This document shows positions 47,614 to 61,642 of a DNA stretch of 64,000 nucleotides, one piece after another. The notes below the pieces were generated by a model, which was given only the letters and a program-made list of their open reading frames with translations, ran no database searches and was not told where the DNA came from. The stretch covers positions 736,001 through 800,000 of the forward strand of contig CAVPIB010000004.1 of assembly GCA_963704885.1 (NCBI GenBank). The letters are read 5' to 3'. The stretch comes from an uncultured Actinomycetes bacterium. Its GTDB lineage: Bacteria; Actinomycetota; UBA4738; HRBIN12. Within the stretch, counting starts at the first letter, position 1; every line of letters begins with the position of its first letter. A program made the translations under genes and the position numbers.

Positions 47614-49041
47614 CTACAGCGGCACGTGGGACATGACCATGATCCGCTGCTCGGTCATCTCTTCCATCGCGAAGCGCAGACCCTCACGGCCGAAGCCGCT
47701 CTCCTTGGACCCTCCGTAAGGCATCTGGTCCGCACGGAACGCCGAGACATCGTTGATGATCACGCCGCCGACCTCGAGCGTCCGGTGCGCCTCGAACGCG
47801 CGGTTGATGTCGTTCGTGAAGACGCCGGCCTGCAGGCCGTACTTCGAGTCGTTCACGACCGCCAATGCCTCTTCGAACGTCTGGTACGGGCTGATCGTGA
47901 CGACCGGGCCGAAGATCTCTTCCTTGCAGACCTTCATCTCGGGGTTCACCTCTGACAGCAGCGTCGGTGAGAAGAACGGTCCCTCGCCGGTGCCCCCGGT
48001 AAGGAGCTCCGCGCCCTGCGAGACGGCCTCGGAGACCCACTCGCCGATCCGTGTGACCTCGCCTTTGTCGATCACCGGTCCCACGTCCACCGTCGGATCC
48101 ATGGGGTCGCCGACCTTCAGGCTCTCGACCTGCTTGACCAAGCGCGTCGTGAACTCGTCGTAGACCTCGCTCGCGACCAGGACGCGTTGGACGCTGATGC
48201 AGCTCTGCCCGGCCTGGTAGTAGCCGCCGAACGCGATGCGCGCGGCCGCATTGTCCAGGTCGGCGTCGGAGTGCACGATCACGCCGGCGTTGCCGCCGAG
48301 CTCGAGCGTCACCCGCTTCTTCGGGTCCAGGCTCTTCAGGTACCAGCCGATATCTGCAGAACCGGTGAACGAGATCTTCCGATAACGCTCGTCCCGCGCC
48401 ATGCCGTCGGCGACCTTCGAACGAACGGGGAGAACCTGGTACATCCCCTTCGGCAGGTCGGTCTCGGCGAAGAACTCAGCCAGGCGCAACGCGCCCACCG
48501 GCGTGGCGGACGCGGGCTTGACCACGATCGGGGCACCGACCGCGAGCGAGGGCGCCACCTTGTGGGCCACCAGGTTCAGCGGGAAGTTGAACGGGGTGAT
48601 GCCCAGCACCGGGCCGATCGGGAACCGCCGCAGCAGACCGATACGGGACCCGAGCGCGGCCTCGGTATCCAGGCGCATCAGCTCGTCGTCGCCGTGGCGG
48701 ATCACCTCGGATGCCCAGCGGAACGTGGAGACGGCCCGAGTCGCTTCGACCTTCGCCCACTTGAGCGGCTTGCCACCCTCGCGCGCGATCAGCTCGGCGT
48801 TCTCGTCGATCGTCTCGGACAGGCGCTTTGAGATGTGATCGAGAGCCTCTGAGCGCGCGTGCACCGGCAGGTGCTGCGAGGTCTTGAAGGTCTCGTGTGC
48901 CGTGGCCGCGGCCTCCTCGACATCGGCCTCGGTGGGGACGCCGATCTCGGCCACGACGCTGTCGTCGAACGGACTCTTGACCTCGAACGTGCCTTCGCCG
49001 GTCCGCCAGTCGCCGTTCACCAGGAATGGTCTCACCTCCAT
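47614..49041 (-). CDS. NAD(P)-dependent aldehyde dehydrogenase
   Basis: ITPFNFP, SFTGS, LELGGN, GQSCIS and EEIFGPV motifs. Confidence 0.94.
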   Translation of the reverse strand: MEVRPFLVNGDWRTGEGTFEVKSPFDDSVVAEIGVPTEADVEEAAATAHETFKTSQHLPVHARSEALDHISKRLSETIDENAELIAREGGKPLKWAKVEATRAVSTFRWASEVIRHGDDELMRLDTEAALGSRIGLLRRFPIGPVLGITPFNFPLNLVAHKVAPSLAVGAPIVVKPASATPVGALRLAEFFAETDLPKGMYQVLPVRSKVADGMARDERYRKISFTGSADIGWYLKSLDPKKRVTLELGGNAGVIVHSDADLDNAAARIAFGGYYQAGQSCISVQRVLVASEVYDEFTTRLVKQVESLKVGDPMDPTVDVGPVIDKGEVTRIGEWVSEAVSQGAELLTGGTGEGPFFSPTLLSEVNPEMKVCKEEIFGPVVTISPYQTFEEALAVVNDSKYGLQAGVFTNDINRAFEAHRTLEVGGVIINDVSAFRADQMPYGGSKESGFGREGLRFAMEEMTEQRIMVMSHVPL

Positions 49042-49092
49042 GCTGCCCTCACACCTCCGTCCGTACGGCCGACTATTCTGGCTCAGACTAGA

Positions 49093-50532
49093 TCAGTCGA
49101 GCGACCACATGACGTGCTTTATCTGCGTGTAGTCCTCGAGCGAATACATCGACATGTCCTTACCGTACCCGCTCTGCTTGTAGCCACCGTGCGGCATCTC
49201 CGGCGAGATCATGAAGTGCGTATTCACCCACACCGCGCCGAACTGGAGGCGCCGCGCTACACGAGCGGCCCTGGCAGCGTCGCGCGTCCAGACCGACGAC
49301 GCGAGGCCGTAGACCACGTCGTTCGCCCACGTCACGGCCTCTTCCTCGTCGTTGAACCGCTGCACCGTGACGACGGGACCGAACACCTCCTGCTGGATGA
49401 TCTCCGCCTTCTGGTCGTCCACGGTCACGACCGTCGGCTTGTAGTAGGCGCCCGGTCCTTCCACCGGTTCGCCGCCCGTCAACACCTTGCCGCCGGCCGT
49501 CTGGGCCCGGTCGACGAACCCCGCGACGCTCTCTCGTTGCTTCGCGGACACGAGCGGCCCCATCTCGACGGACTCGTCGGTGATGTCGCCAACCTTGATC
49601 GACTCCACGGCCGGCACGAGCTCGGCGAGCAGGTCCTCGTAGATCCCGGATCCCGCCACGACCCGGCACGAGGAGGTGCAGTCCTGGCCGGTGTTCGTGT
49701 AGCCGGCGAACTTCAGGGTCTCGACCAGCTTGGATACGTCGGCATCGTCGAACACGACGACCGGAGCCTTGCCGCCCAGCTCGAGGTGGACCCGCTTCAC
49801 CGTGTCCGCGGCGGCGCCCATGATGATCTTGCCTGTGGACGTGTCGCCGGTTACGGAGACGAGACGCACGTCGGGGTTGCGCACGAGCTGGTCCCCGATC
49901 TCCGACCCGTGACCGGTGATCACGTTGATCACTCCCGGCGGGAAGATGTCCGAGGCGAGCTCCCCCAGACGGAGCGCCGTGCGCGGCGTGATCTCGGCGG
50001 GCTTGATGACCGACGTGTTCCCGGCGGCGAGCGCAGGGCCGATCTTCCAAGCCACCATCATCAACGGGTAGTTCCACGGGCAGATGCCGACCGTGACCCC
50101 CAGCGGCTCGCGGCGGATCATGCTCGTGAAGCCACGCTCGTACTCGCCGGTGGACTTGCCCTCCTGCACCCGCGCCGCGCCGGCGAAGAACCGCAGGTTG
50201 TCGGTGATGAAGGGGATGTCGGCCGCCGACACGGAGATCGGCTTGCCCACGTCCTCGGACTCGAGCAGCGCGAGGTTGTCGGCATCGGCGTCCATCGCGT
50301 CCGCGAGCTTCAGCATCATCGCTGCTCGCTCCTTCGGCGGCGTGTCGAACCACACCTCGTCGTAGGCCTTCTGAGCAGCGGCGACGGCGCGATCCGCGTC
50401 TTCCCGGGTCGCCACCTGCACCGTGGCGACGGCTTGGTCGGTCGCGGGGTTGATGTCGGGCTCCGTCTCTCCCCTGCCCGAGTCCACCCACTCGCCGCCG
50501 ATGAGCATCTGCCAGGTCTTTCCGTCGGCCAT
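49093..50532 (-). CDS. gamma-aminobutyraldehyde dehydrogenase (PatD/YdcW-like)
   Basis: [21 protein letters not shown] and [25 protein letters not shown]. Divergent from gabT. Confidence 0.88.
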
Positions 50533-50776
50533 GCTTCCCTCACCTCCGTCTCGGAGCACGAACGCCGCATGGAACGGCGCGGACGCCGCCAGTATGCCGC
50601 TTCGGCGCCGAACCAGGATACTCATAGCTCGGTTCTCCTCCTTCACCCGCGAGCGACTTCCTCACTCGAGGCCGAGCCGGATCCCCGCGCCTGCCGAAGC
50701 CATACAGGGGTAGCCTGGAGCCATCGAACTCGACGCCCAGCCGCGTGGACGCGACGCCACGGAGGAGGAGACCCAT

Positions 50777-52114
50777 ATGGACATCCCGCAGGAGCGGAAG
50801 GTTGTCACCGAGATCCCCGGGGCGCGGTCCCTCGAGTGGATCGCTCGCCGGGCGGGGGCCATGCCGTCTGGATTCCCGACGATCCATCAGATCGTGGCCG
50901 CGCGCGCCTCGGGTGCCATCGTGGAGGACGTCGATGGGAACCGGCTGATCGACTTCGCCACCGGCATCGCGGTCCTGAACGTCGGCCACAGCGCGGACGA
51001 CGTGATCACGGCCGTCGAACGTCAGTTGGAGCGCGACACCCACACCTCCGGCGTGACCGCGAACGAGCCATCCATCGAGCTGGCCGAGAGGCTGAACGCT
51101 CTCACTCCCGGCGACTTCCCCAAGAAGACGTTCTTCGCCAACTCCGGCGCGGAGGCGGTGGAGAACGCCGTGAAGATCGCGCGCTACGCGACCGGCAGGC
51201 AGGCGATCATCTGCTTCGACCACGCGTTCCACGGGCGCACCCTCTTGGCGATGTCGCTCACCGCCAAGGTGATGCCGTACAAGCAGGGCTTCGGGCCGTT
51301 CGCGCCCGAGATCTACCGGCTGCCGTTCGCCTACCCGTACCGCTGGCCGGGCGGGGCTGAGCGTTGCGCGGAGGAGGCGCTCGCCTACGCGCTCGACGAG
51401 ATGCACAAGCACATCGGCGAACAGAACATCGCCGCCGTGATCGTGGAGCCTATCCAGGGCGAGGGCGGGTTCATCGTTCCCGCGCCCGGGTTCTTGAAGG
51501 GCCTGTCGGACTTCTGCACGGAGCACGGGATCGTGTTCGTGGCCGACGAGATCCAATGCGGCATGGGGCGGGCCGGACGCTGGTACGCGATCGAGGACGA
51601 GGGCGTCGTGCCGGACCTGGTTACCACCGCCAAGTCCTTGGGCGCGGGCTTCCCGATCTCGGCGGTGACCGGTCGCGCCGAACTGATGGACGCCGTGCAT
51701 CCGGGGGGACTCGGTGGGACGTATTCGACCAACCCGGTGGCCGCTGCCGCCGGCTTGGCCGTGCTGGACAAGATCGAGCGCGAGGGACTCCTGGAACGCT
51801 CTCGGGCGCTCGGCGACACGATCATGGCGCGATTCCGGTCCTTCGCGGACCGCTATCCGGTCGTGGGAGACGTGCGAGGACGCGGGGCCATGTGCGCGAT
51901 CGAGCTGGTGAGCGACCGGGCGACCAAGGAACCGCTCGGCGCCGACGCCATGAACGCGATCACCCGTCGGTGCCTGGAGAACGGCGTCATCGTGATCACC
52001 GCAGGAACCTACGGGAACGTCGTCCGCCTGCTGCCACCCCTCATCATCGACGACGCGCTGCTGGAGGACGGCCTGGACGTGCTGGACGACGCGATCGGGG
52101 CGGTAACGCCCTAG
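50777..52114 (+). CDS. gabT: 4-aminobutyrate aminotransferase (class III PLP)
   Basis: NSGAEAVENAVKIAR, FHGRT, EPIQGEGG, DEIQ and TAKS motifs. Confidence 0.88.
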   Translation: MDIPQERKVVTEIPGARSLEWIARRAGAMPSGFPTIHQIVAARASGAIVEDVDGNRLIDFATGIAVLNVGHSADDVITAVERQLERDTHTSGVTANEPSIELAERLNALTPGDFPKKTFFANSGAEAVENAVKIARYATGRQAIICFDHAFHGRTLLAMSLTAKVMPYKQGFGPFAPEIYRLPFAYPYRWPGGAERCAEEALAYALDEMHKHIGEQNIAAVIVEPIQGEGGFIVPAPGFLKGLSDFCTEHGIVFVADEIQCGMGRAGRWYAIEDEGVVPDLVTTAKSLGAGFPISAVTGRAELMDAVHPGGLGGTYSTNPVAAAAGLAVLDKIEREGLLERSRALGDTIMARFRSFADRYPVVGDVRGRGAMCAIELVSDRATKEPLGADAMNAITRRCLENGVIVITAGTYGNVVRLLPPLIIDDALLEDGLDVLDDAIGAVTP

Positions 52115-52156
52115 GGTCGCCGGGACCTGCCCACAGGGAGTTGCTAACGTCCGGGC

Positions 52157-53440
52157 GTGACGGCGCCCGCGGACGGCTCTGACCCCCCAGGTCGCGACTC
52201 CCGGCTGCGCCGGATCACGATCGATCTGACTCCGCTGCGCGTGTCCCGCGACTACCGGCTCCTCCTGGCCGGCAGCTTCACGTCGGAGCTCGGTTACCAG
52301 TTCGCCCGTATCGCTATCTATGTGCAGGTCACCGAGCTGACCGGCTCGGCGGCCGCCGTCGGCCTTGTGGGCCTCATCAGCCTGATCGCGCTCTTCCTCG
52401 GAACGCTGGTAGGAGGGTCGTTCATCGACGTCCACGATCGACGGACGACGCTCGCGTGGGCACAGGTCGCCCAGACCCTCAGCGCCGCGATCCTCCTCGG
52501 TGGCGCGCTCCACGGCCACCCACCCATCGGTCTCATCTACGCCGCTGCGGCGCTGCACGCGTTCGTGGGATCGATCGACCAGCCGACTCGCTCGGCGATG
52601 GCTCCTCGATTGGTAGGCAAAGACCTATTGCCCTCAGCGGTGGCGCTCAACCAGGTGTTGTGGCAGACGATCGGGATCATCGGTCCGGCTCTCGCCGGGA
52701 TCGTGATCGCGAGAGCCGGTTTCGGGCTGGCGTACGGGATCGATCTGGTGACCTACGGCGCTCTCTTCGTGGCCGCCCTCCTGATGCGACCGATGCGACC
52801 GGAGCACGACCCCGAGGCAGCCACCGGATGGGGAGCCGTGAAGGAGGGCTTCCGCTACGTGCGCAAGAACCGGCTGATCAGCTCCACGTTCGTGATCGAC
52901 CTGATCGCGATGATCTTCGGCATGCCGCAGGCGCTGTTCACGTTCCTGGCGGTGTCCCAGTTCCACCGGGGGCCCGAGATCGTGGGACTGCTGTTCGCCG
53001 CACCCGCTGTGGGCGCGCTCGTGCAGGCACTCGCCGCAGGATGGGCGAAGAACTTGCGACGACAGGGAGTGGCGGTGATCTGGTCTGTCGCCGCGTGGGG
53101 GGGCGCGATCGCGGCGTTCGGGCTGGTCGGGTCGAACCTGCCCCTCGCGCTCTTCTTCTTGGCGATCGCCGGCGCTGCCGACGTGATCTCGGCGATCTTC
53201 CGGTCCACGATCACGCAGGTGAACACCCCGGACCGCCTGCGCGGCAGGATGTCCCAGATCTTCATCCTGGTCGTCACCGGCGGCCCACGTCTGGGGGACT
53301 TCGAAGCCGGCCTGGTGGCGACCTGGTTCACGCCGACGGTGTCGGTCATATCGGGCGGCCTGGCGTGCATCGTAGGTGCGGGCTTCGTCGCGGTCGTGTA
53401 CCCGGAGCTCAGACGCTATCGCGCGGACCAGGCCGCCTGA
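52157..53440 (+). CDS. MFS transporter (EntS/DHA3-like)
   Basis: About 12 TM helices, with IDLIAMIFGMP, TPDRLRGR and GGPRLGD motifs. Confidence 0.88.
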   Translation: MTAPADGSDPPGRDSRLRRITIDLTPLRVSRDYRLLLAGSFTSELGYQFARIAIYVQVTELTGSAAAVGLVGLISLIALFLGTLVGGSFIDVHDRRTTLAWAQVAQTLSAAILLGGALHGHPPIGLIYAAAALHAFVGSIDQPTRSAMAPRLVGKDLLPSAVALNQVLWQTIGIIGPALAGIVIARAGFGLAYGIDLVTYGALFVAALLMRPMRPEHDPEAATGWGAVKEGFRYVRKNRLISSTFVIDLIAMIFGMPQALFTFLAVSQFHRGPEIVGLLFAAPAVGALVQALAAGWAKNLRRQGVAVIWSVAAWGGAIAAFGLVGSNLPLALFFLAIAGAADVISAIFRSTITQVNTPDRLRGRMSQIFILVVTGGPRLGDFEAGLVATWFTPTVSVISGGLACIVGAGFVAVVYPELRRYRADQAA

Positions 53441-53455
53441 GATACGGTTCCGCCC

Positions 53456-53761
53456 ATGTCCCGGCTCACCGACGGAGAAGTCCGCGCCGCGCTGGCGCAA
53501 GGTCTCGATGGATGGACGTACGACGGTCGCGCGGTCAGCAAGGAGTACGTGTTCAAGGGGTTCATGGCGGCCATCGACTTCATCGATCGACTGGCGGAGC
53601 AGGCCCAGTCGGCGCGTCACCATCCCGACCTAGAGAATCACTACAACCGCGTGCTCGTGTCGCTCACCACACACGACGAAGGGGGCGTGACCGAGCAGGA
53701 CGTCGCGCTCGCACGGGCGATCGAGTCGGTGGCCGAACCCGCGGAGCCGAACCAGACCTGA
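53456..53761 (+). CDS. pterin-4-alpha-carbinolamine dehydratase
   Basis: HHPDL and LTTHDEGGVTEQD motifs. Confidence 0.92.
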   Translation: MSRLTDGEVRAALAQGLDGWTYDGRAVSKEYVFKGFMAAIDFIDRLAEQAQSARHHPDLENHYNRVLVSLTTHDEGGVTEQDVALARAIESVAEPAEPNQT

Positions 53762-53762
53762 C

Positions 53763-55568
53763 ATGGCCGATCCCGTCCGCCTGGTGGAGCTCCGCGTGCT
53801 CGACGGCCCCAATCTGTACTTCACCCGTCCCGCGATCAAGCTGACGCTCGCCGTTCCCGGCTGGCTGCGCACGACAGAGGAACGGGTGACCGCGATAGTC
53901 GATCGCCTTGGGTTCCCCGCAGGCACCAAGGCTGGACCCCCGGGGAGCGATCAGCGGCGCAGGTTGGTCTCCCGCATCGCCGCGCACCTGGCGCGCCGGA
54001 CGGCGGTCGCCGGCGGCGCGCGACGCCTCTCGGTCCGGGCACGACCTGGGCCTGAGCGTGATCAGATCGTGGTGGCGTTCCCCTGGCGGCGGCGCGCCGC
54101 CGCCGAGTCGCTGGCGAACGAGATCGCCGACGGGATGAGCGCCTTGCTCCGCCGCTCGCCCGACCGGCTGATCGCCGAGGCCGGTAGGCGCCTCGCGGGC
54201 GTCGAGCCGGGTGACGCACCGGCCGTCCCGGACCCCGACGTTCCCGTGATCCAGGTGACGGGGACGAACGGCAAGACGACGACCGTGCGCCTCCTGGCCC
54301 ACCTGGTGCGGGCCGCGGGACTGCGGGTGGCCTACTCCTCGACGGACGGCGTGTACCGCGACGACGACGATCTGGTGGAGGCCGGCGACTACTCGGGGTT
54401 CGGAGGCGCGGCCCGGGCGCTCTCCCAGATCCCCGACATCGCGGTCCTTGAGACGGCGCGTGGCGGGATGCTCTTGCGCGGCGTGGGCGTGCAGCACAAC
54501 GACGTGGCCGTCGTGACCAACGTCAGCGACGATCACCTCGGATTGAACGGCGTGGACACCGTGGATCAGCTGGCCGAGGTGAAGAGCATCGTCACCCGCA
54601 TCACGCGGCCGGATGGTTGGGACGTCCTGAACGCCGACGACCCTCGCGTGCTGGCGATGCGCCGGCATGCGAGCGGACGCCCCTGGCTCTTTACCACCCA
54701 CCCGGATCATCCCGCGATCCGCGAGGTGCTCTCCGAAGGTGGCCGAGCGATCACCGTTCTGGACGACCGGTTGTCCTGGCTCGAGAGGCGACAGACCCAT
54801 CCGCTACTACCGGTCGTCGACGTCCCGGTGACCCTGGCCGGCCTCTCCAAGACGAACCTGCAGAACGCCATGGCCGCCACCGCGGCCGCCCTCGCCATAG
54901 GCCTGCCGGAACGTGCGGTCGTTCGGGGCTTGAGATCGTTCGTGTTGGACCCCGAGCGGAACCCGGGCCGCGCGAACCTGTTCCGGCTCGACGGCCGGAT
55001 CGTGGTTATCGACTACGCCCATAACGAAGCCGGGATGATCGGCCTCACGGAGATCTTGAACGGACTATGTCGCCGTGAGAGCGAGACTTGGCTCGCCATC
55101 TGTACGGCCGGCGACCGGACCGACGCCATCCTGCACTCGTTCGCGTTCAGAGCCGCGGTCGGTTCCGACCACCTGGGAGTGGCGGAGCTCCTCCACTACC
55201 TGCGTGGGCGCACGCGCGAGGACATCGTGGAGCGGCTGCGCGAGGGGGCGCGGGAGGCCGGTGTCGACGACGTGTCGGTCTACGACGACGAGCTCGTGGC
55301 CCTGCGCTCCTTGCTCGAGCGCTCATCTGCAGGTGACGTTGTGAGCGTCACGGCGCTCGGGAAGCGACCCGAGATCTTCGCCTGGCTGGACGGGGCCGGC
55401 GCCACACGGTTGAGCCCGGGCGAAGTCCGACGCCTGGTCCGCGCGGTGCGTCGGTCGCGCGAGACCGATGCCGACGCGGGGGCGACCACCGACCCGGGAC
55501 TAGACTGGATCGGATGCAGGTCGATCCTAAGACGCCTTCCGTCCACGCGATGGAGTCCCCACTCGTGA
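53763..55568 (+). CDS. cyanophycin-synthetase paralogue: N domain plus Mur-ligase domain, no ATP-grasp domain
   Basis: LRVLDGPNLY N-terminus, VTGTNGKTTT, ETARGG, TNVSDDHLG, NADDP, NPGRAN, DYAHN and GDR. The 3' end is uncertain: it overlaps otsA, and a TAG at 55501 lies one base out of frame. Confidence 0.85.
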   Translation: MADPVRLVELRVLDGPNLYFTRPAIKLTLAVPGWLRTTEERVTAIVDRLGFPAGTKAGPPGSDQRRRLVSRIAAHLARRTAVAGGARRLSVRARPGPERDQIVVAFPWRRRAAAESLANEIADGMSALLRRSPDRLIAEAGRRLAGVEPGDAPAVPDPDVPVIQVTGTNGKTTTVRLLAHLVRAAGLRVAYSSTDGVYRDDDDLVEAGDYSGFGGAARALSQIPDIAVLETARGGMLLRGVGVQHNDVAVVTNVSDDHLGLNGVDTVDQLAEVKSIVTRITRPDGWDVLNADDPRVLAMRRHASGRPWLFTTHPDHPAIREVLSEGGRAITVLDDRLSWLERRQTHPLLPVVDVPVTLAGLSKTNLQNAMAATAAALAIGLPERAVVRGLRSFVLDPERNPGRANLFRLDGRIVVIDYAHNEAGMIGLTEILNGLCRRESETWLAICTAGDRTDAILHSFAFRAAVGSDHLGVAELLHYLRGRTREDIVERLREGAREAGVDDVSVYDDELVALRSLLERSSAGDVVSVTALGKRPEIFAWLDGAGATRLSPGEVRRLVRAVRRSRETDADAGATTDPGLDWIGCRSILRRLPSTRWSPHS

Positions 55569-56992
55569 TCGCGTCGAACCGTGGCCCCCTCAGCTTCGAG
55601 CGCGACGACAGAGGCGAGCTGATCGCCCGTCGCGGCTCCGGGGGTCTCGTCACGGCCCTCTCCAGCGTCTTCTTCCGCGACGACATCACGTGGGTGTCGG
55701 CGGCGATGACCGAGGGTGATAGGGCGATCGCCGACTCCGGTGAGGAGGTGGCCCCCGAGGCCGGGATCCGCGTCCGATTCGTAGGGATCCCGGAGGATCG
55801 GTACGAGGCGTATTACAACCGGATCGCGAACGGCGTGCTGTGGTTCCTCCACCACTACCTCTGGGACATCGCGCGATCGCCCCGGTTCGGCGATGACACC
55901 GTGCGCGACTGGCAGGAGTTCGTCGAGGCCAACCGGAGCTTCGCTACCGTACTCGCGCAGCAAGCCGGCGACGCGCCCGTCTACCTGATCCAGGACTATC
56001 ATCTCGCGCTGGTCCCGGCCATGCTCCGTGAGCTCCGGCCCGACGCGAAGATCGTCCATTTCTCCCACACGCCGTTCGCAGGTCCCACCTACCTACGGAT
56101 CCTCCCGGTAGAGATGCGCTCGGCGCTCCTGCGCGGGATGGCGGGCGCCGACGTCGTCGGGTTCCAGGCCCGCACCTGGGCGGAGAATTTCCTGCTCTCG
56201 TGTCGCGGCCTGGAGGGGATGCGCGTGGACCTGCATCGGTGGCGGGTCTCCGACGACGAGCACCCCACCGTCGTGAGGACCTTCCCGGTAGGCGTGAACG
56301 CAGCCTCGATACGCCAGACGGCGGCGGAGCCCGACGTTCAGGCCACCCGCAAGGAGATCGAGCATGAACGCGGCGAGCGAGCCTTGTTGCTGCGAGTGGA
56401 CCGGCTGGAGCCGTCCAAGAACATCTTGCGCGGGTTCCTTGCCTACGAGCTTTTCCTGCGGCGCAACCCCGCGTGGCTCGGTCGCGTTCGGTTCCTGGCC
56501 CTTCTGAGCCCCTCCCGTGAGGACGTGCCCGAGTACCTGAACTACGGCGAGGAGTGCCTGGCGGAGGTGAAGCGGATCAACGCCGAGCTCGGCCGGGACG
56601 ACTGGGAACCGATCGACGTCCGCGTCCAAGAGGACTACGCGTACGCCGTCGCCGCGTACGGCGTCTACGACGCGATGCTCGTGAACCCCGTCTACGACGG
56701 CATGAACCTGGTCGCGATGGAGGGGCCGCTCATCAACCGCCGACACGGCGTCTTGATCCTGTCGCGCAACGCAGGCGCCTTCGGTCGACTGGGTCGCCAC
56801 GCGCTCTCGATCAACCCTTTCGACCTGGCCGAGACCGCCGAGGCTATCCGAGAAGGTCTCGAGATGCCCGACGAGGAGCGGACCCGACGCGCACGTGGTC
56901 TTTCTCGGATGGTGCAAGCGCATACGCCGGCCACCTGGCTCACCGAACAGCTCGAAGCCGTGGATCAGGTCCGAGGTCCGGCGACCGGCTGA
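55514..56992 (+). CDS. otsA: trehalose-6-phosphate synthase (GT20)
   Basis: ASNRGP, GGLV, QDYHL, HFSHTPF, RVDRLEPSK and DGMNLVAME motifs. TAGACT -10 box 7 nt before the ATG. Confidence 0.88.
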   Translation: MQVDPKTPSVHAMESPLVIASNRGPLSFERDDRGELIARRGSGGLVTALSSVFFRDDITWVSAAMTEGDRAIADSGEEVAPEAGIRVRFVGIPEDRYEAYYNRIANGVLWFLHHYLWDIARSPRFGDDTVRDWQEFVEANRSFATVLAQQAGDAPVYLIQDYHLALVPAMLRELRPDAKIVHFSHTPFAGPTYLRILPVEMRSALLRGMAGADVVGFQARTWAENFLLSCRGLEGMRVDLHRWRVSDDEHPTVVRTFPVGVNAASIRQTAAEPDVQATRKEIEHERGERALLLRVDRLEPSKNILRGFLAYELFLRRNPAWLGRVRFLALLSPSREDVPEYLNYGEECLAEVKRINAELGRDDWEPIDVRVQEDYAYAVAAYGVYDAMLVNPVYDGMNLVAMEGPLINRRHGVLILSRNAGAFGRLGRHALSINPFDLAETAEAIREGLEMPDEERTRRARGLSRMVQAHTPATWLTEQLEAVDQVRGPATG

Positions 56993-57002
56993 AGCTCGCG
57001 CT

Positions 57003-57330
57003 TCAGGGCGCGATCGCGCGGAGCAGCTCCCGCATCCCCACGGGTCCGTCTACTACCACGTCGGCCGCGGCGACGACCTCGGGCGGGAGCGACCCGCGTC
57101 ACCGCTCCGACCACGTCGGCCGAGACGGGGACAGCTCCCCCTCGTCGCCTAGACCGTAGAGCCCCGCGATCTGGACCCGGTCGACGCCCACGAGCTCGGC
57201 AACGTGGGCTCTTGGACGTCCCGACACCACAGCCACGAGCGCGTAGGCCAGGGTCAGCTCGCCAAGCACGTCCCTGATGCCTGGGTCGATACGCGCGAGT
57301 TCGGGACGTTCGACGAAATCGCTGCGATCA
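57003..57330 (-). pseudogene. otsB: trehalose-6-phosphate phosphatase (OtsB-like) remnant
   Basis: VERPELAR...VAVVSGR...AGLYGL, then an in-frame TGA at 57099, then the C-terminal PPEVVAAADVVVDGP. The DxDGT motif and the central part including GDDxxD are missing. Confidence 0.7.
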
Positions 57331-57359
57331 CCCCAGATCCCGCTGGGGATGCCCGTCGC

Positions 57360-57530
57360 CACCATGCTCGCGCCCTCTGCGAGAAGCTGCTCTCCTTGGC
57401 CAGCCCGCTCGGCCTGCACGCCGAGGAGCTCGATCCTGTGAGCGGCCGTCATCTCGGCAACTTCCCGCAGGCGTTCACGCACCTCGCCCTTATCAACGCC
57501 CTGATGCATGTGATCCACGCGGAGTCCGAG
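57360..57530 (+). pseudogene. C-terminal fragment of a GH15 glycoside hydrolase (trehalase/glucoamylase-like)
   Basis: ARALCEKLLSLASPLGLHAEELDPVSGRHLGNFPQAFTHLALINA, the GH15 C-terminal signature, with no upstream catalytic domain. Confidence 0.78.
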
Positions 57531-57563
57531 CAGGAGAGGACCGCAGCGTTTCCCGGCGAGGCG

Positions 57564-57905
57564 TCAGTCGGAGATCTGGCGGCTGCAGGCGACGCAGTAC
57601 GGGGTCCAGGGGATGGCCTCCAGACGCTCGGCGGGGATCTCAGAACCGCAGCGGACGCAGGCCCCGTACGCGCCGTCGTCGATCCTAGCCAGAGCGCCGT
57701 CGATGGCGGCGAGCGTTCCAGCGAGCGACCGGGCCGCCGAGGTCTGGTTGATGCGCTCCACCGCCTCCGTCGTTCCGTCGCCGACGCGCTTGCCGAAAGA
57801 AACCGTCGCCGTGGGGTCCCGCCGGACCTCGACGAGCGCTCCGAGTGAGGACCGCAGCTCATCGCGGCGGGCCTCCAGCTCCTGCTTGATCCGCTCCACG
57901 TCCAC
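57564..57905 (-). CDS. TraR/DksA C4-type zinc-finger protein
   Basis: Coiled coil followed by ALARIDDGAYGACVRCGSEIPAERLEAIPWTPYCVAC. Confidence 0.9.
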   Translation of the reverse strand: MDVERIKQELEARRDELRSSLGALVEVRRDPTATVSFGKRVGDGTTEAVERINQTSAARSLAGTLAAIDGALARIDDGAYGACVRCGSEIPAERLEAIPWTPYCVACSRQISD

Positions 57906-57917
57906 CTGGAGATCGCC

Positions 57918-60767
57918 TCAGACGCTGAGCAGGTCAGGGTCGCCGCCGACCGCCTCGACCTGACCGTCGCCCTCAGAGGCCCTCAGCACCTGAGGGGCAG
58001 CCGAACCCCGTCGCGATTCCAGCTCGTGGTACACCTCGGTGGCGTAGTCCACGCACAGAACGACCAGGTCGCCGGGGCGCGAGCGGTTCAAGGCCATGCG
58101 CGCCGCCTCCATCTCGTCCAGGACGATCTCGGCGTTCCCGACTCGGGCCGTTCCCGTCTCCTGAGCCTCGCGCACGCCTTCCAGGATCAGCTCGGCGGTC
58201 TGCCCCGTCGGCCGCCCACGGCTCTTGCGGTCCTCCCGGATGATCAACTCATCGAAGTACTTAGCGGCGACCCGTCCGAGCTCGCGCATATCTTCGTCGC
58301 GCCTGTCACCCGCCGTGGCGACCACAGCGACCCGCAGGTTGGCGGTCCACGAGGCCTCTCCCGGCTGACCGCCCACCGGTGCGTCCGACGTCATCCGATC
58401 CACGAAGTCCCCCACCATCTCCAATCCAGCGGCGTTGTGGGCGTAGTCGATCAACACCTTGACCCCATCCAGGTCGAACAGGTTCAACCGACCGGGCGCC
58501 TGATAGACGGAGGTGGTGAACGACCGCAGACCTTGCCGGATGTCATGAAGGTGCGCACCGGCTGCATGCGCGGCCGCCGCTGCGGCCATGGCGTTCTGCA
58601 CCATCATCCGTGCCTTGCCCTCGAACGTGGCCGGCAGCGTGTGCACCCACGCGATCGGCATGGTGCGACGCCCCTCGCGTATCACCATCATCTCGCCGCG
58701 CGGGCCGTGCTCCAGCACGACCGCCTTGCGACCACGCCGGATCCAACGTTCGACCAGATCGTGCTTCTCCTTCATGGTGAACAGGATCACGTTCCCGCTG
58801 CAGTGGCGGCGCATCTCGAGCACCAGCGGGTCGTCCGCATTGAGCACCGCGTATCCGTTGCGTGGCACGGCTTCCACCACTACTTGCTTGACCGCAGCCA
58901 GCTGCTCCAGCGTGTCGATCTCCTTCAGACCCAGATGGTCGCCAGTCACGTTCAGGACCACGCCGACGTCGTTGCGTTCGTAACCCAGGCCCTCTCGGAG
59001 GATCCCACCGCGCGCGATCTCGAAGATGGCCATGTCCACGCGGGGGTTCTGCAACACCATGAGCGCCGACTTGGGACCCGATGCGTCGACGCGTTTGACC
59101 AGTCGCTCGTCGATGAAGATGCCGTCGGTCGAGGTGATGCCCACCTGGCGTCCCATCCCCCGGAAGATGTGGGAGATCATGCGCGTGGTGGTGGTCTTCC
59201 CGTTCGAGCCCGTCACCGCCACGATCGGGATCCGGGCCGGGGTGCCAGGCGGGAAGAGCAGATCTACCACGTGTTTCGCCACGTACTGCGGCTCGCCCTC
59301 GGTCGGATTCGTGTGCATGCGGAACCCCGGAGCCGCGTTCACCTCCACGATCGCGCCGCCGGTCTCGCGGACGGGATGTGCGATGTCTGGAGCCAGGAAG
59401 TCGATGCCGGCGACGTCGAGCCCCACCACCCCGGCCGCCTCCTCGGCGATCTCGATGTTGTCCTCGTGGGCGTCCCACGTCCTGTCGATCGAGATGCCTC
59501 CCGTGGACATGTTGCCTGTGGCAGCCAGCAGCACGCGCTCACCCTCGGGCGGCACGTCGTCCAGCCCGTAGCCCTGCTTCTTGACCAGCTCGATAGCCGC
59601 GTCATCGATCTTGATCCTGGTCAGGACCTTCTCGTGACCGAGGCCACGTCTGGGGTCTTGGTTGGTGAGCTCCACCAGCTCGCGGACGGATCGCTTGCCG
59701 TCGCCGATCACGTGCGCCGGGACGCGCTCCGCGATCGCCACAACCCGCCCCCCGATCACGAGGACCCGGTAGTCGTTGCCGGTCACGAAGCCCTCCACGA
59801 CCACCCGGCCGTTCCGCGATTCCTTCACCGCGCGTTTGAACCCGGTGCGGACGCCGCGTTCGGTTCGAAGTTCCAGACCCACCCCGCGCCCATGGTTGCC
59901 GTCGAGCGGCTTGGTGACCACGGGGAACCCGATCCGCTTGGCCGCGGCCACGGCATCGTCTTCGTTGCGTACGACCTCACTGCGCGGAACAGGCAGGCCC
60001 GCCGCGGCCAACAGCTGATTGGTCATCTTCTTGTCGCCCGCGATGTCCACCGCCAGCGCCGACGTGGCCGACGTCATGGTGGCGCGGATGCGTTGCTGAT
60101 ACTTCCCCTGGCCGAGCTGCACCAGAGATTGCTGGTTCAGCCGGATGAACGGGATGTCCCGGCTGGCCGCCTCGTCCAAGATCGCCTGCGTCGAAGGGCC
60201 GAACTGCCGCCTCTCGGCCAGGAGGATCAGGCGCTCGAGCTCCGGCGTGAACTCGAACCCCGGGGCTGGCTTGATCAGCTGGTTCACCAGGCGGACGGCC
60301 AGCTTGCCGGCCTCGACGCCCACCACTTCCTCGGCGTAGCCGTAGATCACGTTGTATCGACCGTGCGCGCCGGCGCTTCGGGTCTTGCCCCTTGAGATCT
60401 GGGCGCCGGACTCGCGTTGCAACTCGAGAGCCACGTGCTCGGCGACGTGTCCGAGCCAGGTACCGTCCTCCAACCGCTCGCGGAAGCCGCCTCGCTTGCC
60501 GAGCGAGCAGGAGTGTTCGCCGACGCCGGGTAGAAGCTCCAGGAGCCTGCCGTTGAAGCCGGGGATCGTGTTGGACGGCCACTCCTCGAGCGAGCCCAGA
60601 TCCACCAGCATCCGGATGCACGGCTCGTAGGACCAGTAGTTCGGACCTCGGAACACCTGCGCCTGCAAGATCTTCAGGTCGGGGCGGAGCCGGGCCTGCT
60701 TCTGGGAGGCGGGCTCGCGCTTCTCCCGCTGCCGGTCGGCGCGGGTCTTGGCCGCCCCCGCGGTCAC
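57918..60767 (-). CDS. cphA: cyanophycin synthetase CphA1
   Basis: RGPNYW, Cx19HxxEH N domain, GPST, KPLDGNHGRG ATP-grasp, EVNAAPGFRMH, GSNGKTTT and DYAHN. Confidence 0.96.
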   Translation of the reverse strand: MTAGAAKTRADRQREKREPASQKQARLRPDLKILQAQVFRGPNYWSYEPCIRMLVDLGSLEEWPSNTIPGFNGRLLELLPGVGEHSCSLGKRGGFRERLEDGTWLGHVAEHVALELQRESGAQISRGKTRSAGAHGRYNVIYGYAEEVVGVEAGKLAVRLVNQLIKPAPGFEFTPELERLILLAERRQFGPSTQAILDEAASRDIPFIRLNQQSLVQLGQGKYQQRIRATMTSATSALAVDIAGDKKMTNQLLAAAGLPVPRSEVVRNEDDAVAAAKRIGFPVVTKPLDGNHGRGVGLELRTERGVRTGFKRAVKESRNGRVVVEGFVTGNDYRVLVIGGRVVAIAERVPAHVIGDGKRSVRELVELTNQDPRRGLGHEKVLTRIKIDDAAIELVKKQGYGLDDVPPEGERVLLAATGNMSTGGISIDRTWDAHEDNIEIAEEAAGVVGLDVAGIDFLAPDIAHPVRETGGAIVEVNAAPGFRMHTNPTEGEPQYVAKHVVDLLFPPGTPARIPIVAVTGSNGKTTTTRMISHIFRGMGRQVGITSTDGIFIDERLVKRVDASGPKSALMVLQNPRVDMAIFEIARGGILREGLGYERNDVGVVLNVTGDHLGLKEIDTLEQLAAVKQVVVEAVPRNGYAVLNADDPLVLEMRRHCSGNVILFTMKEKHDLVERWIRRGRKAVVLEHGPRGEMMVIREGRRTMPIAWVHTLPATFEGKARMMVQNAMAAAAAAHAAGAHLHDIRQGLRSFTTSVYQAPGRLNLFDLDGVKVLIDYAHNAAGLEMVGDFVDRMTSDAPVGGQPGEASWTANLRVAVVATAGDRRDEDMRELGRVAAKYFDELIIREDRKSRGRPTGQTAELILEGVREAQETGTARVGNAEIVLDEMEAARMALNRSRPGDLVVLCVDYATEVYHELESRRGSAAPQVLRASEGDGQVEAVGGDPDLLSV

Positions 60768-61642
60768 TCCGAGGCCTCCCGCTCGGCTTCGAGCGCCCCC
60801 TCGCCGGCCATGAGCCGGCGCGACCGCAGATCGAACCAGTAGCCGGAAGGGAGCGTGTGCAAGACCGCGCCCGACACCATCAGCGGGCGGTACCCCTTGC
60901 CGCGGTACGAGTCGGTCTTCACGTGCGATCCATCCACGATCGTCACGGCTCCACGGCCGATCACCTGGATCGTCTGGTCGGAATGCACTATCGCGCAGGT
61001 GTCCTCGTCGAGCCCTACTCCCAGGAGGGACGGCGACCCCGCCACGATCGCGAGGAGCCGGCCGATCCGGCCTCGTTGCTCGAAGTGCTGATCGATCACC
61101 ACGCCGTGAAGGATCCCCAAGCCGGCGGAGAGCTGCGCCATCCGGTTCTTGGGGGTGGAACCGGTCCGGCCGAAGGCGACCATATGTGAGGCCATGGCAC
61201 TCGCGCCAGCCGACGTACCGGCCAGCACAGCACCACGGTCGTGGGCCAAGAAGAGGGCGTCTCCCAAGCGCGTCCCGGCCACCACCGAGGCCAGACGCGA
61301 CTGGTTGCCTCCGGTGAGGAACACGCCCGTGGCGGTCTGCACGGTCGCCACGAGCGCCGGATCGTCGGCCTCCTCGCGGTCATCGGGCCGAAGGCCCGTC
61401 ACCGTGCTGATCCCGAGCCCTCCGAAGAGCTCGCGGTAGAGATCGGTGGCGATGTCTCCCAGCGACGAGGCGGTGGAGATCACCACGACGTGCCCCTCGG
61501 GCCCGCCGGCGAACTTCGCGAACCGAGCCAGGATGGCCTTGTCGCGGAACTTGTCCTCGGCGCCCCCTATCACCATGACCGGACCGGCCGTGCCGAGGCC
61601 GGCCACGGACGATAGGGGACCCTTCTCCTTCGCGCGCGCCAC
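60764..61642 (-). CDS. cphB: cyanophycinase
   Basis: IGGAEDK, TGGNQ, GTSAGA, IDQHF and GLDEDT motifs. GTGA overlap with cphA. Confidence 0.95.
   Translation of the reverse strand: MARAKEKGPLSSVAGLGTAGPVMVIGGAEDKFRDKAILARFAKFAGGPEGHVVVISTASSLGDIATDLYRELFGGLGISTVTGLRPDDREEADDPALVATVQTATGVFLTGGNQSRLASVVAGTRLGDALFLAHDRGAVLAGTSAGASAMASHMVAFGRTGSTPKNRMAQLSAGLGILHGVVIDQHFEQRGRIGRLLAIVAGSPSLLGVGLDEDTCAIVHSDQTIQVIGRGAVTIVDGSHVKTDSYRGKGYRPLMVSGAVLHTLPSGYWFDLRSRRLMAGEGALEAEREASE

Follow-up and report, generated by a model that had tools for sequence, protein, structure and literature searches.

Synthesis of cyanophycin, a polymer in which nitrogen is stored, has been described with two enzymes: CphA1, which carries out both half-reactions, and CphA2, which re-polymerizes dipeptides by means of its G domain only. 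The Mur fold is also used outside the peptidoglycan stem peptide, in PgsB/CapB (poly-gamma-glutamate synthetase) and MurT (lipid II amidation), which use ATP to activate the carboxylate of a side-chain or of a polymer. In most CphA1 enzymes, a metallopeptidase-like site in the N domain, with the motif Cx19HxxEH, makes primers (PMC9262961); CphA2 (7TA5) is a reduced member of the family, with an active G domain, an M domain that is truncated and inactive (PMC10273328), and an N domain from which the metallopeptidase motif has been lost (PMC9262961). The window analysed in the present study, a stretch of 64,000 nucleotides from the genome of an uncultured Actinomycetes bacterium (3.0 Mb, 97% complete; GC content 66-71% over 46-62 kb of the window), contains, alongside complete cphA1 and cphB genes, a gene for a third type of protein, in which a CphA-type N domain is followed directly by a Mur-ligase-like M domain. 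This N+M protein resembles CphA2 in being a reduced family member without the metallopeptidase motif, but is otherwise its opposite, because it is the G domain that is gone, while the M domain is full-length and, to judge from its residues, apparently active.

An M domain joined directly to a CphA-type N domain

The open reading frame (ORF) of the N+M protein reads through without stops for 601 residues, of which about 570 are conserved; residues 571-601 are unconserved, are predicted to be disordered (predicted local distance difference test score, pLDDT, <50) and overlap the start of the following gene, otsA. Pfam detects Mur_ligase_M (PF08245) at residues 165-376 (62.8 bits; cut-off 24) and Mur_ligase_C (PF02875) at residues 402-530 (32.9 bits; cut-off 28.4), and both families were matched in 36 of 36 family members, whereas residues 1-158 gave no Pfam match. 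No ATP-grasp family of Pfam matched the window N+M protein at E ≤ 1; by comparison, the neighbouring CphA1 gives RimK, CPSase_L_D2 and others, and one family member of the 36 has a sub-threshold match to ATP-grasp_5 (E = 0.043). The N domain ends at approximately residue 158 and the P-loop begins at residue 167, so that the N-to-M junction is direct, and about 330 residues, those of the ATP-grasp G domain, are missing relative to CphA1. The cyanophycin synthetase model TIGR02068 is matched at E = 1e-101 over model positions 478-847 of 862, with a score of 341.4 bits against its cut-off of 850.

An AlphaFold2 model of the full protein, built on an alignment of 36 family sequences (48-80% identity), has a pLDDT of 90.0 and a predicted template-modelling score (pTM) of 0.87. 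Superposition of this model on chains of CphA1 gives Z scores of 48-51 and a root-mean-square deviation (rmsd) of 3.1-3.4 Å over 519-526 aligned residues, with residues 5-546 of the model running along residues 1-877 of the CphA1 chain, whereas Mur ligases align over only about 350 residues (Z = 27-33). Foldseek likewise spans about 880 columns on CphA1, with the G domain as a gap and a TM score of 0.69-0.76 on the query. Together, the superposition and the Foldseek span suggest that the modelled N and M domains pack against each other as in CphA1 (TIGR02068; 7LG5, 7LGQ and 7WAE), with both folds in the same mutual orientation and all of the ATP and Mg2+ residues in common. A preliminary description of this stretch, made from the sequence alone, had proposed exactly this layout, an N and a Mur-ligase domain without ATP-grasp and thus a mirror image of CphA2, and the Pfam matches, the TIGR02068 coverage and the superposition all bear it out.

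The assignment of the N domain required more care, because its resemblance to CphA1 in sequence is weak. BLASTP aligns merely 23 residues of the N region with the neighbouring CphA1 (E = 0.1), and PF18921, the Cyanophycin_syn N-domain family of Pfam, is silent (none of the 36 family members at E ≤ 1); membership was therefore decided by profile-profile comparison and by fold. Comparison of 17 N regions with 18 CphA1 N domains in hhalign gave E = 9.8e-5 and a probability of 58% over 127 collinear columns, and paired exactly the stretches that the preliminary description had quoted as CphA-like. When folded alone, the N region reached a pLDDT of 94.6, and a fold search of it against 48,161 representative chains, made with no prefilter, returned CphA2 (7ta5) as the best structural match (Z = 10.1, rmsd 4.0, 138 residues aligned), followed by the Acinetobacter CphA 7lgm (Z = 9.1, rmsd 3.7, 138 residues aligned). 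These were the sole chains with Z ≥ 8, the next having Z = 5.5. We therefore take residues 1-158, as modelled, to be a CphA-type N domain, firm in fold if weak in sequence, and unlike the N-terminal domain of the Mur ligases, which is of the nucleotide-sugar-binding type.

The metallopeptidase-like site of this domain is absent, as the preliminary description had noted. The column counts given here and below compare 21 CphA1s with 19 N+M proteins from mapped loci, and the Cx19HxxEH motif was found in 19 of the former and none of the latter; in the hhalign register, the first His of the CphA1 motif falls on R71 and the catalytic Glu on A74, and H75 is unconserved in the family. The helix that corresponds to the CphA1 active-site helix is occupied by an Arg cluster, in which, across the 36 sequences, R65, R67 and W108 are invariant and R71, R109 and R110 nearly so. 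The charge of the domain is also different, with a net value of +2 to +14 in 16 of 17 N+M proteins, compared with -11 to +1 in 18 of 18 CphA1s. In SuCphA1, a hydrophobic loop of the N domain (Y14, I17) packs on the M domain (PMC9262961); at the counterpart of this loop the 36-sequence alignment has G15 and N17 invariant, with L18-Y19-F20 conserved at ≥90%.

The M domain, by contrast with the N domain, is readily recognized in sequence. It is 39% identical to that of the neighbouring CphA1 (BLASTP, residues 160-543 against 513-917), and its nearest solved relatives are CphA1 chains (7lg5, E = 4e-61; M-domain identity 39-45%). The Mur-like motifs named in the preliminary description are intact: GTNGKTTT at residues 167-174, ETARGG at 230-235, DHLG at 257-260 and DYAHN at 417-421. 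In the ATP site of TeCphA1, Lys499 belongs to the P-loop, Mg2+ is held via Thr500, Thr522 and Glu558, Asn497 and Phe692 lie around the adenine, and Arg731 and His748 of the lid contact the phosphates (PMC9427784). The equivalents in the N+M protein are K171, T172, T194, E230, N169, F393 and, in the Mlid, the ATP phosphate contacts R403 and H420; the Mcore assignments were made by mapping onto TeCphA1 K499, T500, T522, E558 and F692 (PMC9427784). These eight residues and H258 are invariant across the 36-sequence alignment, that is, down to 48% identity, and N169, K171, T194, E230, H258, F393, R403 and H420 are also identical in 19 of 19 N+M proteins of the mapped loci, where residue 172 is Thr in 17 and Ser in 2. 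The retention of the ATP and Mg2+ residues is the pattern expected of an active ligase rather than of a pseudo-enzyme and, by analogy with CphA1, the N+M protein has all of the structural parts that the side-chain half-reaction requires.

This invariance bears on the suggestion that the protein might be a non-catalytic partner or regulator, binding CphA1 or cyanophycin granules, which the preliminary description had raised in the form of a regulatory subunit of a hetero-oligomer. Such a role would suit a protein that accompanies cphA1 in 41 of 41 genomes of the window's phylum (see below), keeps a polymer-binding N domain and carries a conserved basic helix at its C-terminus. However, residues contacting ATP, Mg2+ and phosphate that do not vary in 36 sequences would be unexpected in a pseudo-enzyme, and the protein has no Gcore, the part that forms the large interface of the CphA1 dimer (PMC9427784), so that a regulatory subunit is disfavoured and, in our judgement, very improbable. 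Complementation of a defective M domain in the local CphA1 was also considered and ruled out: all 21 neighbouring CphA1s retain every M-domain motif, so that there is no dead M domain for the N+M protein to replace.

Co-occurrence with cphA1 and position in the family tree

The distribution of the N+M gene was followed in two samples of genomes. In the first, 401 genomes drawn evenly from the window's phylum, cphA1 (scored as a long ORF containing a strong match to the CphA1 N domain) was present in 41 genomes, and an N+M gene in 41 of these 41; the figure becomes 39 of 39 if two unpublished genomes, G088 and G343, are left out. The 41 genomes, and no others of the 401, contain matches to the query better than E = 1e-60, and the N+M gene was found in none of the 360 cphA1-free genomes, where the best match (E = 9e-17) was to ordinary Mur ligases. 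The gene is of the window's type in 39 of the 41, as a single match including the N-terminus in 34 and in pieces, at contig ends or with internal stops, in five, whereas the remaining two genomes (G294 and G327) have an N+M gene of a second clade, directly downstream of cphA1 on the same strand. In the second sample, 181 genomes from the phylum of a relative titled Chloroflexia (the genome of locus L112), cphA1 was present in 24 and an N+M-like gene in 22 of the 24. Seventeen of these genes are of the window's type and convergent with cphA1 on the same contig, at distances from an overlap to a gap of about 2.8 kb, and five are another N+M-like ORF elsewhere; none of the 157 cphA1-free genomes gave a match at E ≤ 1e-20. 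Synteny agrees with this distribution, because cphA1 lies convergent and within 6 kb downstream of the N+M gene in 50 of 80 named public loci, and in 24 of the 80 otsA stands directly after the N+M gene, moving cphA1 further off. The two genes thus share a genome in both phyla sampled and are usually neighbours. The architecture and its tie to cyanophycin are solid, and the possibility, envisaged in the preliminary description, that homologues would occur mostly in genomes without cphA did not materialize in either phylum.

The same counts speak to the proposal that the protein is a Mur-type ligase of some unrelated pathway (cell wall, folate or a product that the upstream operon derives from GABA (4-aminobutyrate) or polyamines) which lies near cphA1 by chance. 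Like MurE, MurC, MurD, MurF and FolC, the N+M protein has PF08245 and PF02875, the P-loop, the Mg2+ ligands and the lid Arg and His, and it superposes on these ligases with Z = 27-33 over about 350 residues; moreover, in the window its gene is packed in the same direction as gabT, a major facilitator superfamily (MFS) gene and a pterin dehydratase gene, with two aldehyde dehydrogenase genes upstream and otsA after it. Nevertheless, the gabT and MFS neighbours are confined to a single taxonomic family (f1), whereas the link to cphA1 extends over two phyla, and none of 517 cphA1-free genomes carries the N+M gene. The source genome has its own MurC, MurD, MurE, MurF and FolC, and the models for such enzymes scored far under their cut-offs with the N+M protein: MurE 76.7 bits (E = 1e-21) against 373, murF 51.9 against 288.6, murD 51.4 against 211.95, murC 40.1 against 335.1 and folC 45.8 against 162.65 (all NCBIfam), MurT 25.8 against 800 and PgsB (TIGR04012) 16.6 against 222.7, all of them 80 orders of magnitude weaker than TIGR02068. 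No GatD-like partner or membrane component, as might be looked for in a comparison with PgsB and MurT, was seen near the N+M gene. With a CphA-type N fold as well, the clustering with MurE, MurF, FolC or CapB that the preliminary description had kept in view was not found, and we consider an unrelated pathway to be extremely unlikely.

The family is large. A word-indexed search gave 6774 matches, the best 120 of which are proteins of 467-731 residues (most of them 560-600) with 66-96% identity, named at source either 'cyanophycin synthetase' or 'Mur ligase family protein'. Two N-domain peptide patterns, with one genome per species, confirmed at least 594 relatives, and 80 of 80 loci taken from these encode the same N+M protein, which rules out an assembly artefact, a concern of the preliminary description. 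The 80 loci are from metagenome-assembled genomes throughout; most are titled Actinomycetota or Actinomycetes, the other titles being Chloroflexi/Chloroflexota/Chloroflexia, Candidatus Dormiibacterota, Limnocylindrales, Solirubrobacterales and, for one locus, Candidatus Rokuibacteriota. When 1.84 billion cluster representatives were searched exhaustively with HMMER, 1147 proteins had E ≤ 1e-30; of the top 150 of these, 67 are complete with 130-260 residues ahead of a CphA-like M domain and 14 have the CphA1 layout. Taxonomy for 10 cluster representatives included one 'Clostridia bacterium' name and was otherwise metagenomic.

A quick maximum-likelihood tree was made from 111 M-domain rows (77 N+M and 31 of CphA1 layout, plus an outgroup that amounts to MurE and MurC, the rows labelled MurE and MurF being one and the same ORF; 401 columns kept) in IQ-TREE with LG+G4, the support values being from the Shimodaira-Hasegawa-like approximate likelihood-ratio test (SH-aLRT) only. 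Of two N+M clades, the first has 35 rows (support 98) and includes the window protein, and the second has 36 rows (support 80) and includes the G294 and G327 genes and two DUF4938-positive proteins; the CphA1 clade of 37 rows (support 98) includes the local CphA1s and six short proteins. The branching order of these three groups is unresolved. Because the N+M proteins lie in deep clades outside the CphA1 M-domain clade, the window gene did not arise from its neighbour by a recent deletion, and an origin as a CphA paralogue that had recently lost its ATP-grasp domain is disfavoured; the conservation of the family likewise rules out a recent deletion. The position of the N+M clades beside, and not inside, that of CphA1 suggests that they may represent an ancestral unit which received an ATP-grasp domain, giving CphA1. 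The family also bears on the origin of the three-domain synthetase.

The DUF4938-type proteins of the second clade resemble the window family in length (about 560-580 residues) and in having an N region of ~170 residues before a CphA-like M domain, but they belong to the other clade, and in phmmer the window N domain does not match their N regions. PF16292 (DUF4938) matched 0 of 36 members of the window family at E ≤ 1 and gave no match in the 401 genomes from the phylum of the window, a search in which the controls gave no match either. These proteins are likewise uncharacterized, and the only paper found to name DUF4938 gives it no function.

Several variants were noted in the course of these searches. 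The six short proteins of the CphA1 clade are P0249 (611 residues), P0228, P0213, P0216, P0250 and P0269; in P0249, only about 90 residues separate a canonical PF18921 N domain (E = 4.5e-47) from the M domain after it, and the six may be independent losses of the G domain or gene fragments. Orthologues of the N+M protein from taxonomic family f51 (L032/L045 from genome G165 and L046 from G230) have an extra C-terminal extension, giving 732 and 762 residues, which in the G165 copy, the one scanned, is a tetratricopeptide repeat (TPR) region (Pfam TPR_5, E = 1.8e-24). In several assemblies (G376:C9 (L031), G222:C3, G293:C21 and G122:C289), an in-frame stop or a frameshift interrupts either the N+M gene or cphA1, as a pseudogene or through assembly error. 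Four genomes of the second phylum (G451, G463, G502 and G547; 5.8-6.5 Mb) have, besides cphA1, an M-type ORF of 542-577 residues with 34-35% identity on a different contig, which looks like an unlinked N+M variant. Stand-alone Cyanophycin_syn-like N domains (PF18921, E = 1e-6 to 1e-14) were seen in open frames of 136-280 residues in G012, G042, G057, G072, G128, G142, G207, G220, G233, G246, G272, G292, G308, G319, G330, G363 and others, in taxonomic families f17, f25, f42, f57 and f68, where no full cphA1 showed.

Class-specific residues and the proposed reaction

Although the ATP site is common to the two classes, residues around the polymer and in the lid are not. Position 279, which aligns with the cyanophycin-contacting residue E607 of SuCphA1 (PMC9262961), is Glu in 21 of 21 CphA1s and Arg or Lys in 17 of 19 N+M proteins, and position 210 is Ala in 19 of 21 CphA1s and an aromatic residue (Tyr, Phe or Trp) in every N+M protein (19/19). 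In the lid, Ala or Ser of CphA1 at position 400 is replaced by Asn (19/19), the Arg at 453 (21/21) by Thr, Ser or Pro (18/19) and the Arg or Lys at 474 (21/21) by a small residue. The N+M lid also has a one-residue insertion and Y479-L480 (19/19), directly ahead of an R481-G482-R483 segment that is common with CphA1, as is D451-R452; the class-specific stretches of the Mlid thus read N400-P401, G450-D451-R452-(T/S/P)453 and Y479-L480-R481-G482-R483.

Comparison with MurE suggests what part of this region might do. The DNPR or DNPA motif of MurE binds the side-chain of the incoming amino acid, and in Staphylococcus aureus MurE its Asp contacts the epsilon-amino group of lysine (PMC3829189). When the source genome's own MurE was aligned in L-INS-i, the Arg of its DNPR motif fell on R481, and the Asp fell on the invariant Asp of CphA1 (21/21), whose place is taken by Leu, Lys or Val in 19 of 19 N+M proteins, which differ from the Mur ligases in having L/K/V...R at this position. 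A further Mur ligase, from locus L003, proved to be MurD-like and was not used for this mapping. By analogy with MurE, we infer that the invariant lid Asp of CphA1 helps to bind the incoming Arg, and that the N+M proteins recognize their amine differently. The loss of the Asp argues mildly against the cationic candidates for this amine (Lys, Orn and polyamines), and a positively charged N domain would be suited to a chain that is more acidic and poor in Arg.

At positions that contact the polymer or lie in the lid, the invariant residues of CphA1 are thus systematically exchanged in the N+M proteins, and we therefore think that the substrate pair differs from that of CphA1. With moderate confidence, we propose that the N+M protein is an active stand-alone ATP-dependent amide ligase of the CphA M-domain type, working within cyanophycin metabolism, on cyanophycin or its Asp backbone, with a specificity unlike that of CphA1. 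A cyanophycin-type chain would be held in the groove lying between Mcore and the N domain, as in CphA1; ATP would phosphorylate a carboxylate of the chain, to which the amine would then be joined. The likely acceptor would be a more acidic, Arg-poor stretch of Asp, compared with the C-terminal Asp to which CphA1 adds Arg, and the incoming amine would be recognized without the invariant lid Asp of CphA1. The Asp backbone would not be extendable by such an enzyme, because the ATP-grasp domain is absent, nor would primers be cleavable by it, because the metal site of the N domain is gone.

Several observations weigh against this proposal and should be read with it. Cyanophycin is named as the substrate from genomic linkage and structural analogy only, and the sampled genomes are related to one another, so that the co-occurrence counts overstate the independent support and describe a pattern rather than a probability; furthermore, two cphA1 genomes of the second phylum (G511 and G539) showed no N+M gene. 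The mapping of the MurE DNPR motif onto CphA1 and the N+M proteins comes from a single L-INS-i alignment, and two lid Arg residues that are invariant in CphA1 are lost alongside the Asp, so that charge by itself does not reveal the direction in which specificity has changed. Nor do all copies have a basic N domain: the net charge in the G242 copy is -13, and the second-type copies L049 and L050 look acidic by eye.

The same residues help to judge whether the protein simply performs the reaction of the CphA1 M domain, the addition of Arg to the beta-carboxylate of Asp, in trans, as a booster or as a gap-filler on bare Asp. That CphA M domains are its nearest relatives (39-45% identity; TIGR02068, E = 1e-101), that it has all of the catalytic residues in common with CphA1 together with D451-R452 and R481-G482-R483, and that acidic stretches free of Arg would be a suitable partner for a basic N domain, are all consistent with such a role. 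It is more difficult to reconcile with the replacement of the CphA1-invariant Arg at 453, the Arg or Lys at 474 and the DNPR-aligned Asp, or with the N+M-specific invariants N400, Y479 and L480 and the aromatic residue at 210, which fit a changed specificity, and the deep clade is not that of a recent copy. We regard the shared reaction as unlikely.

Another possibility is that the substrates are small, with free Asp or a short peptide being joined to an amino acid to give beta-Asp-Arg-like dipeptides or short primers that start or feed CphA1. An M-type domain can in principle activate the side-chain of free Asp, CphA1 is very slow without primers (PMC9262961) and the strict dependence on cphA1 would fit a helper. 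However, 19 of the 21 neighbouring CphA1s keep the primer-making Cx19HxxEH motif and should need no help, and a conserved polymer-holding N domain with an Arg cluster is hard to explain if the substrate is small; this explanation therefore appears improbable.

If a stand-alone ligase acting on cyanophycin is correct, an enzyme with only the M activity would be a third member of the cyanophycin system, beside CphA1 and CphA2, and the conservation of this half-synthetase suggests an unrecognized extra step in the making of cyanophycin in many uncultured soil bacteria. The implied step, be it the addition of side-chains in trans, a new side-chain or repair, lies outside the textbook pathway, and if a different side-chain is installed, the enzyme would offer a natural route to modified cyanophycins, which are wanted for materials and for dipeptide production. 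More speculatively, a large set of mostly uncultured soil Actinomycetota and bacteria labelled Chloroflexota or Dormibacterota might make cyanophycin with two enzymes, the N+M protein adding a second kind of side-chain or modifying a different carboxylate to give a polymer unlike multi-Arg-poly-Asp, and the N+M module might be ancestral to CphA1; this wider picture is tentative, and we think it somewhat doubtful as a whole. The family is apparently unstudied. Full-text literature searches (cyanophycin synthetase-like or homologue, truncated, Actinobacteria, Mur ligase and DUF4938) found no description of an N+M enzyme, the available sections of a bioinformatics survey of CphA (PMC10206079) do not mention such a protein, and the name 'CphA3' was met in the literature only as that of an Aeromonas beta-lactamase.

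Neighbouring genes in the window

The features of the locus are collected in Table 1. The complete cphB-cphA1 pair recorded in the preliminary description is confirmed by scores above the cut-offs of TIGR02068 and TIGR02069.

Table 1. Coordinates of the N+M gene, its domains and the neighbouring genes in the window
Feature	Position	Strand	Evidence and remarks
Second aldehyde dehydrogenase	47614-49041	-	Part of putrescine/GABA catabolic set, 47614-52114
Aminobutyraldehyde dehydrogenase	49093-50646	-	NF010000, 690 bits (cut-off 615)
gabT	50777-52114	+	TIGR00700, 536 bits (cut-off 507)
MFS transporter	52157-53440	+	Pfam/NCBIfam
Pterin-4a-carbinolamine dehydratase	53456-53761	+	Pfam/NCBIfam; ends two bases before N+M start codon
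N+M protein gene	53763-55568	+	601-residue ORF and translation; family alignment; AlphaFold2 model, pLDDT 90
N domain, residues 1-158	53763-54236	+	hhalign, fold search, invariant columns, charge
Mcore, residues about 159-395	54237-54947	+	Pfam PF08245; P-loop G167-T173, T194, E230, H258, N290, F393
Mlid, residues about 396-548	54948-55406	+	Pfam PF02875; residue counts by column in the two classes
Conserved basic C-terminal helix (residues 552-570), then unconserved disordered tail (571-601)	55416-55568	+	Alignment; pLDDT
otsA (trehalose-6-phosphate synthase-like, GT20), between N+M gene and cphA1	55514-56992	+	Pfam PF00982, E = 2.6e-105
DksA/TraR-type zinc-finger protein, 113 residues, directly downstream of cphA1	57564-57905	-	Pfam PF01258
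cphA1, complete cyanophycin synthetase 1 (N-G-M)	57918-60767	-	TIGR02068, 1170.7 bits (cut-off 850); Pfam; Cx19HxxEH and all M motifs
cphB, cyanophycinase	60764-61642	-	TIGR02069, 241 bits (cut-off 126.6)

Three genes on the same strand are packed tightly upstream of the N+M gene (50777-53761). The preliminary description had pointed to the GABA and aminoaldehyde genes in this region; their presence upstream is confirmed but a general link is not, because, in the 21 mapped loci, gabT and the MFS gene occur nine times each, mostly adjoining the N+M gene and always within taxonomic family f1; the tie to cphA1 has no such restriction. The putrescine/GABA set could tie the arginine released from cyanophycin to GABA catabolism. 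The pterin-4a-carbinolamine dehydratase gene occupies its place in four of the 21 loci, and a functional link is not evident.

A scan of positions 50400-58000 on both strands for promoters and terminators found none, and a search of the whole window with Rfam gave no match. The otsA gene overlaps the N+M ORF by 55 bases, or by 19 if otsA starts at its Met13, the point from which homologues align. The DksA/TraR-type gene follows cphA1 in seven of the 21 mapped loci, all in family f1, and its product may be a regulator of the cph operon.

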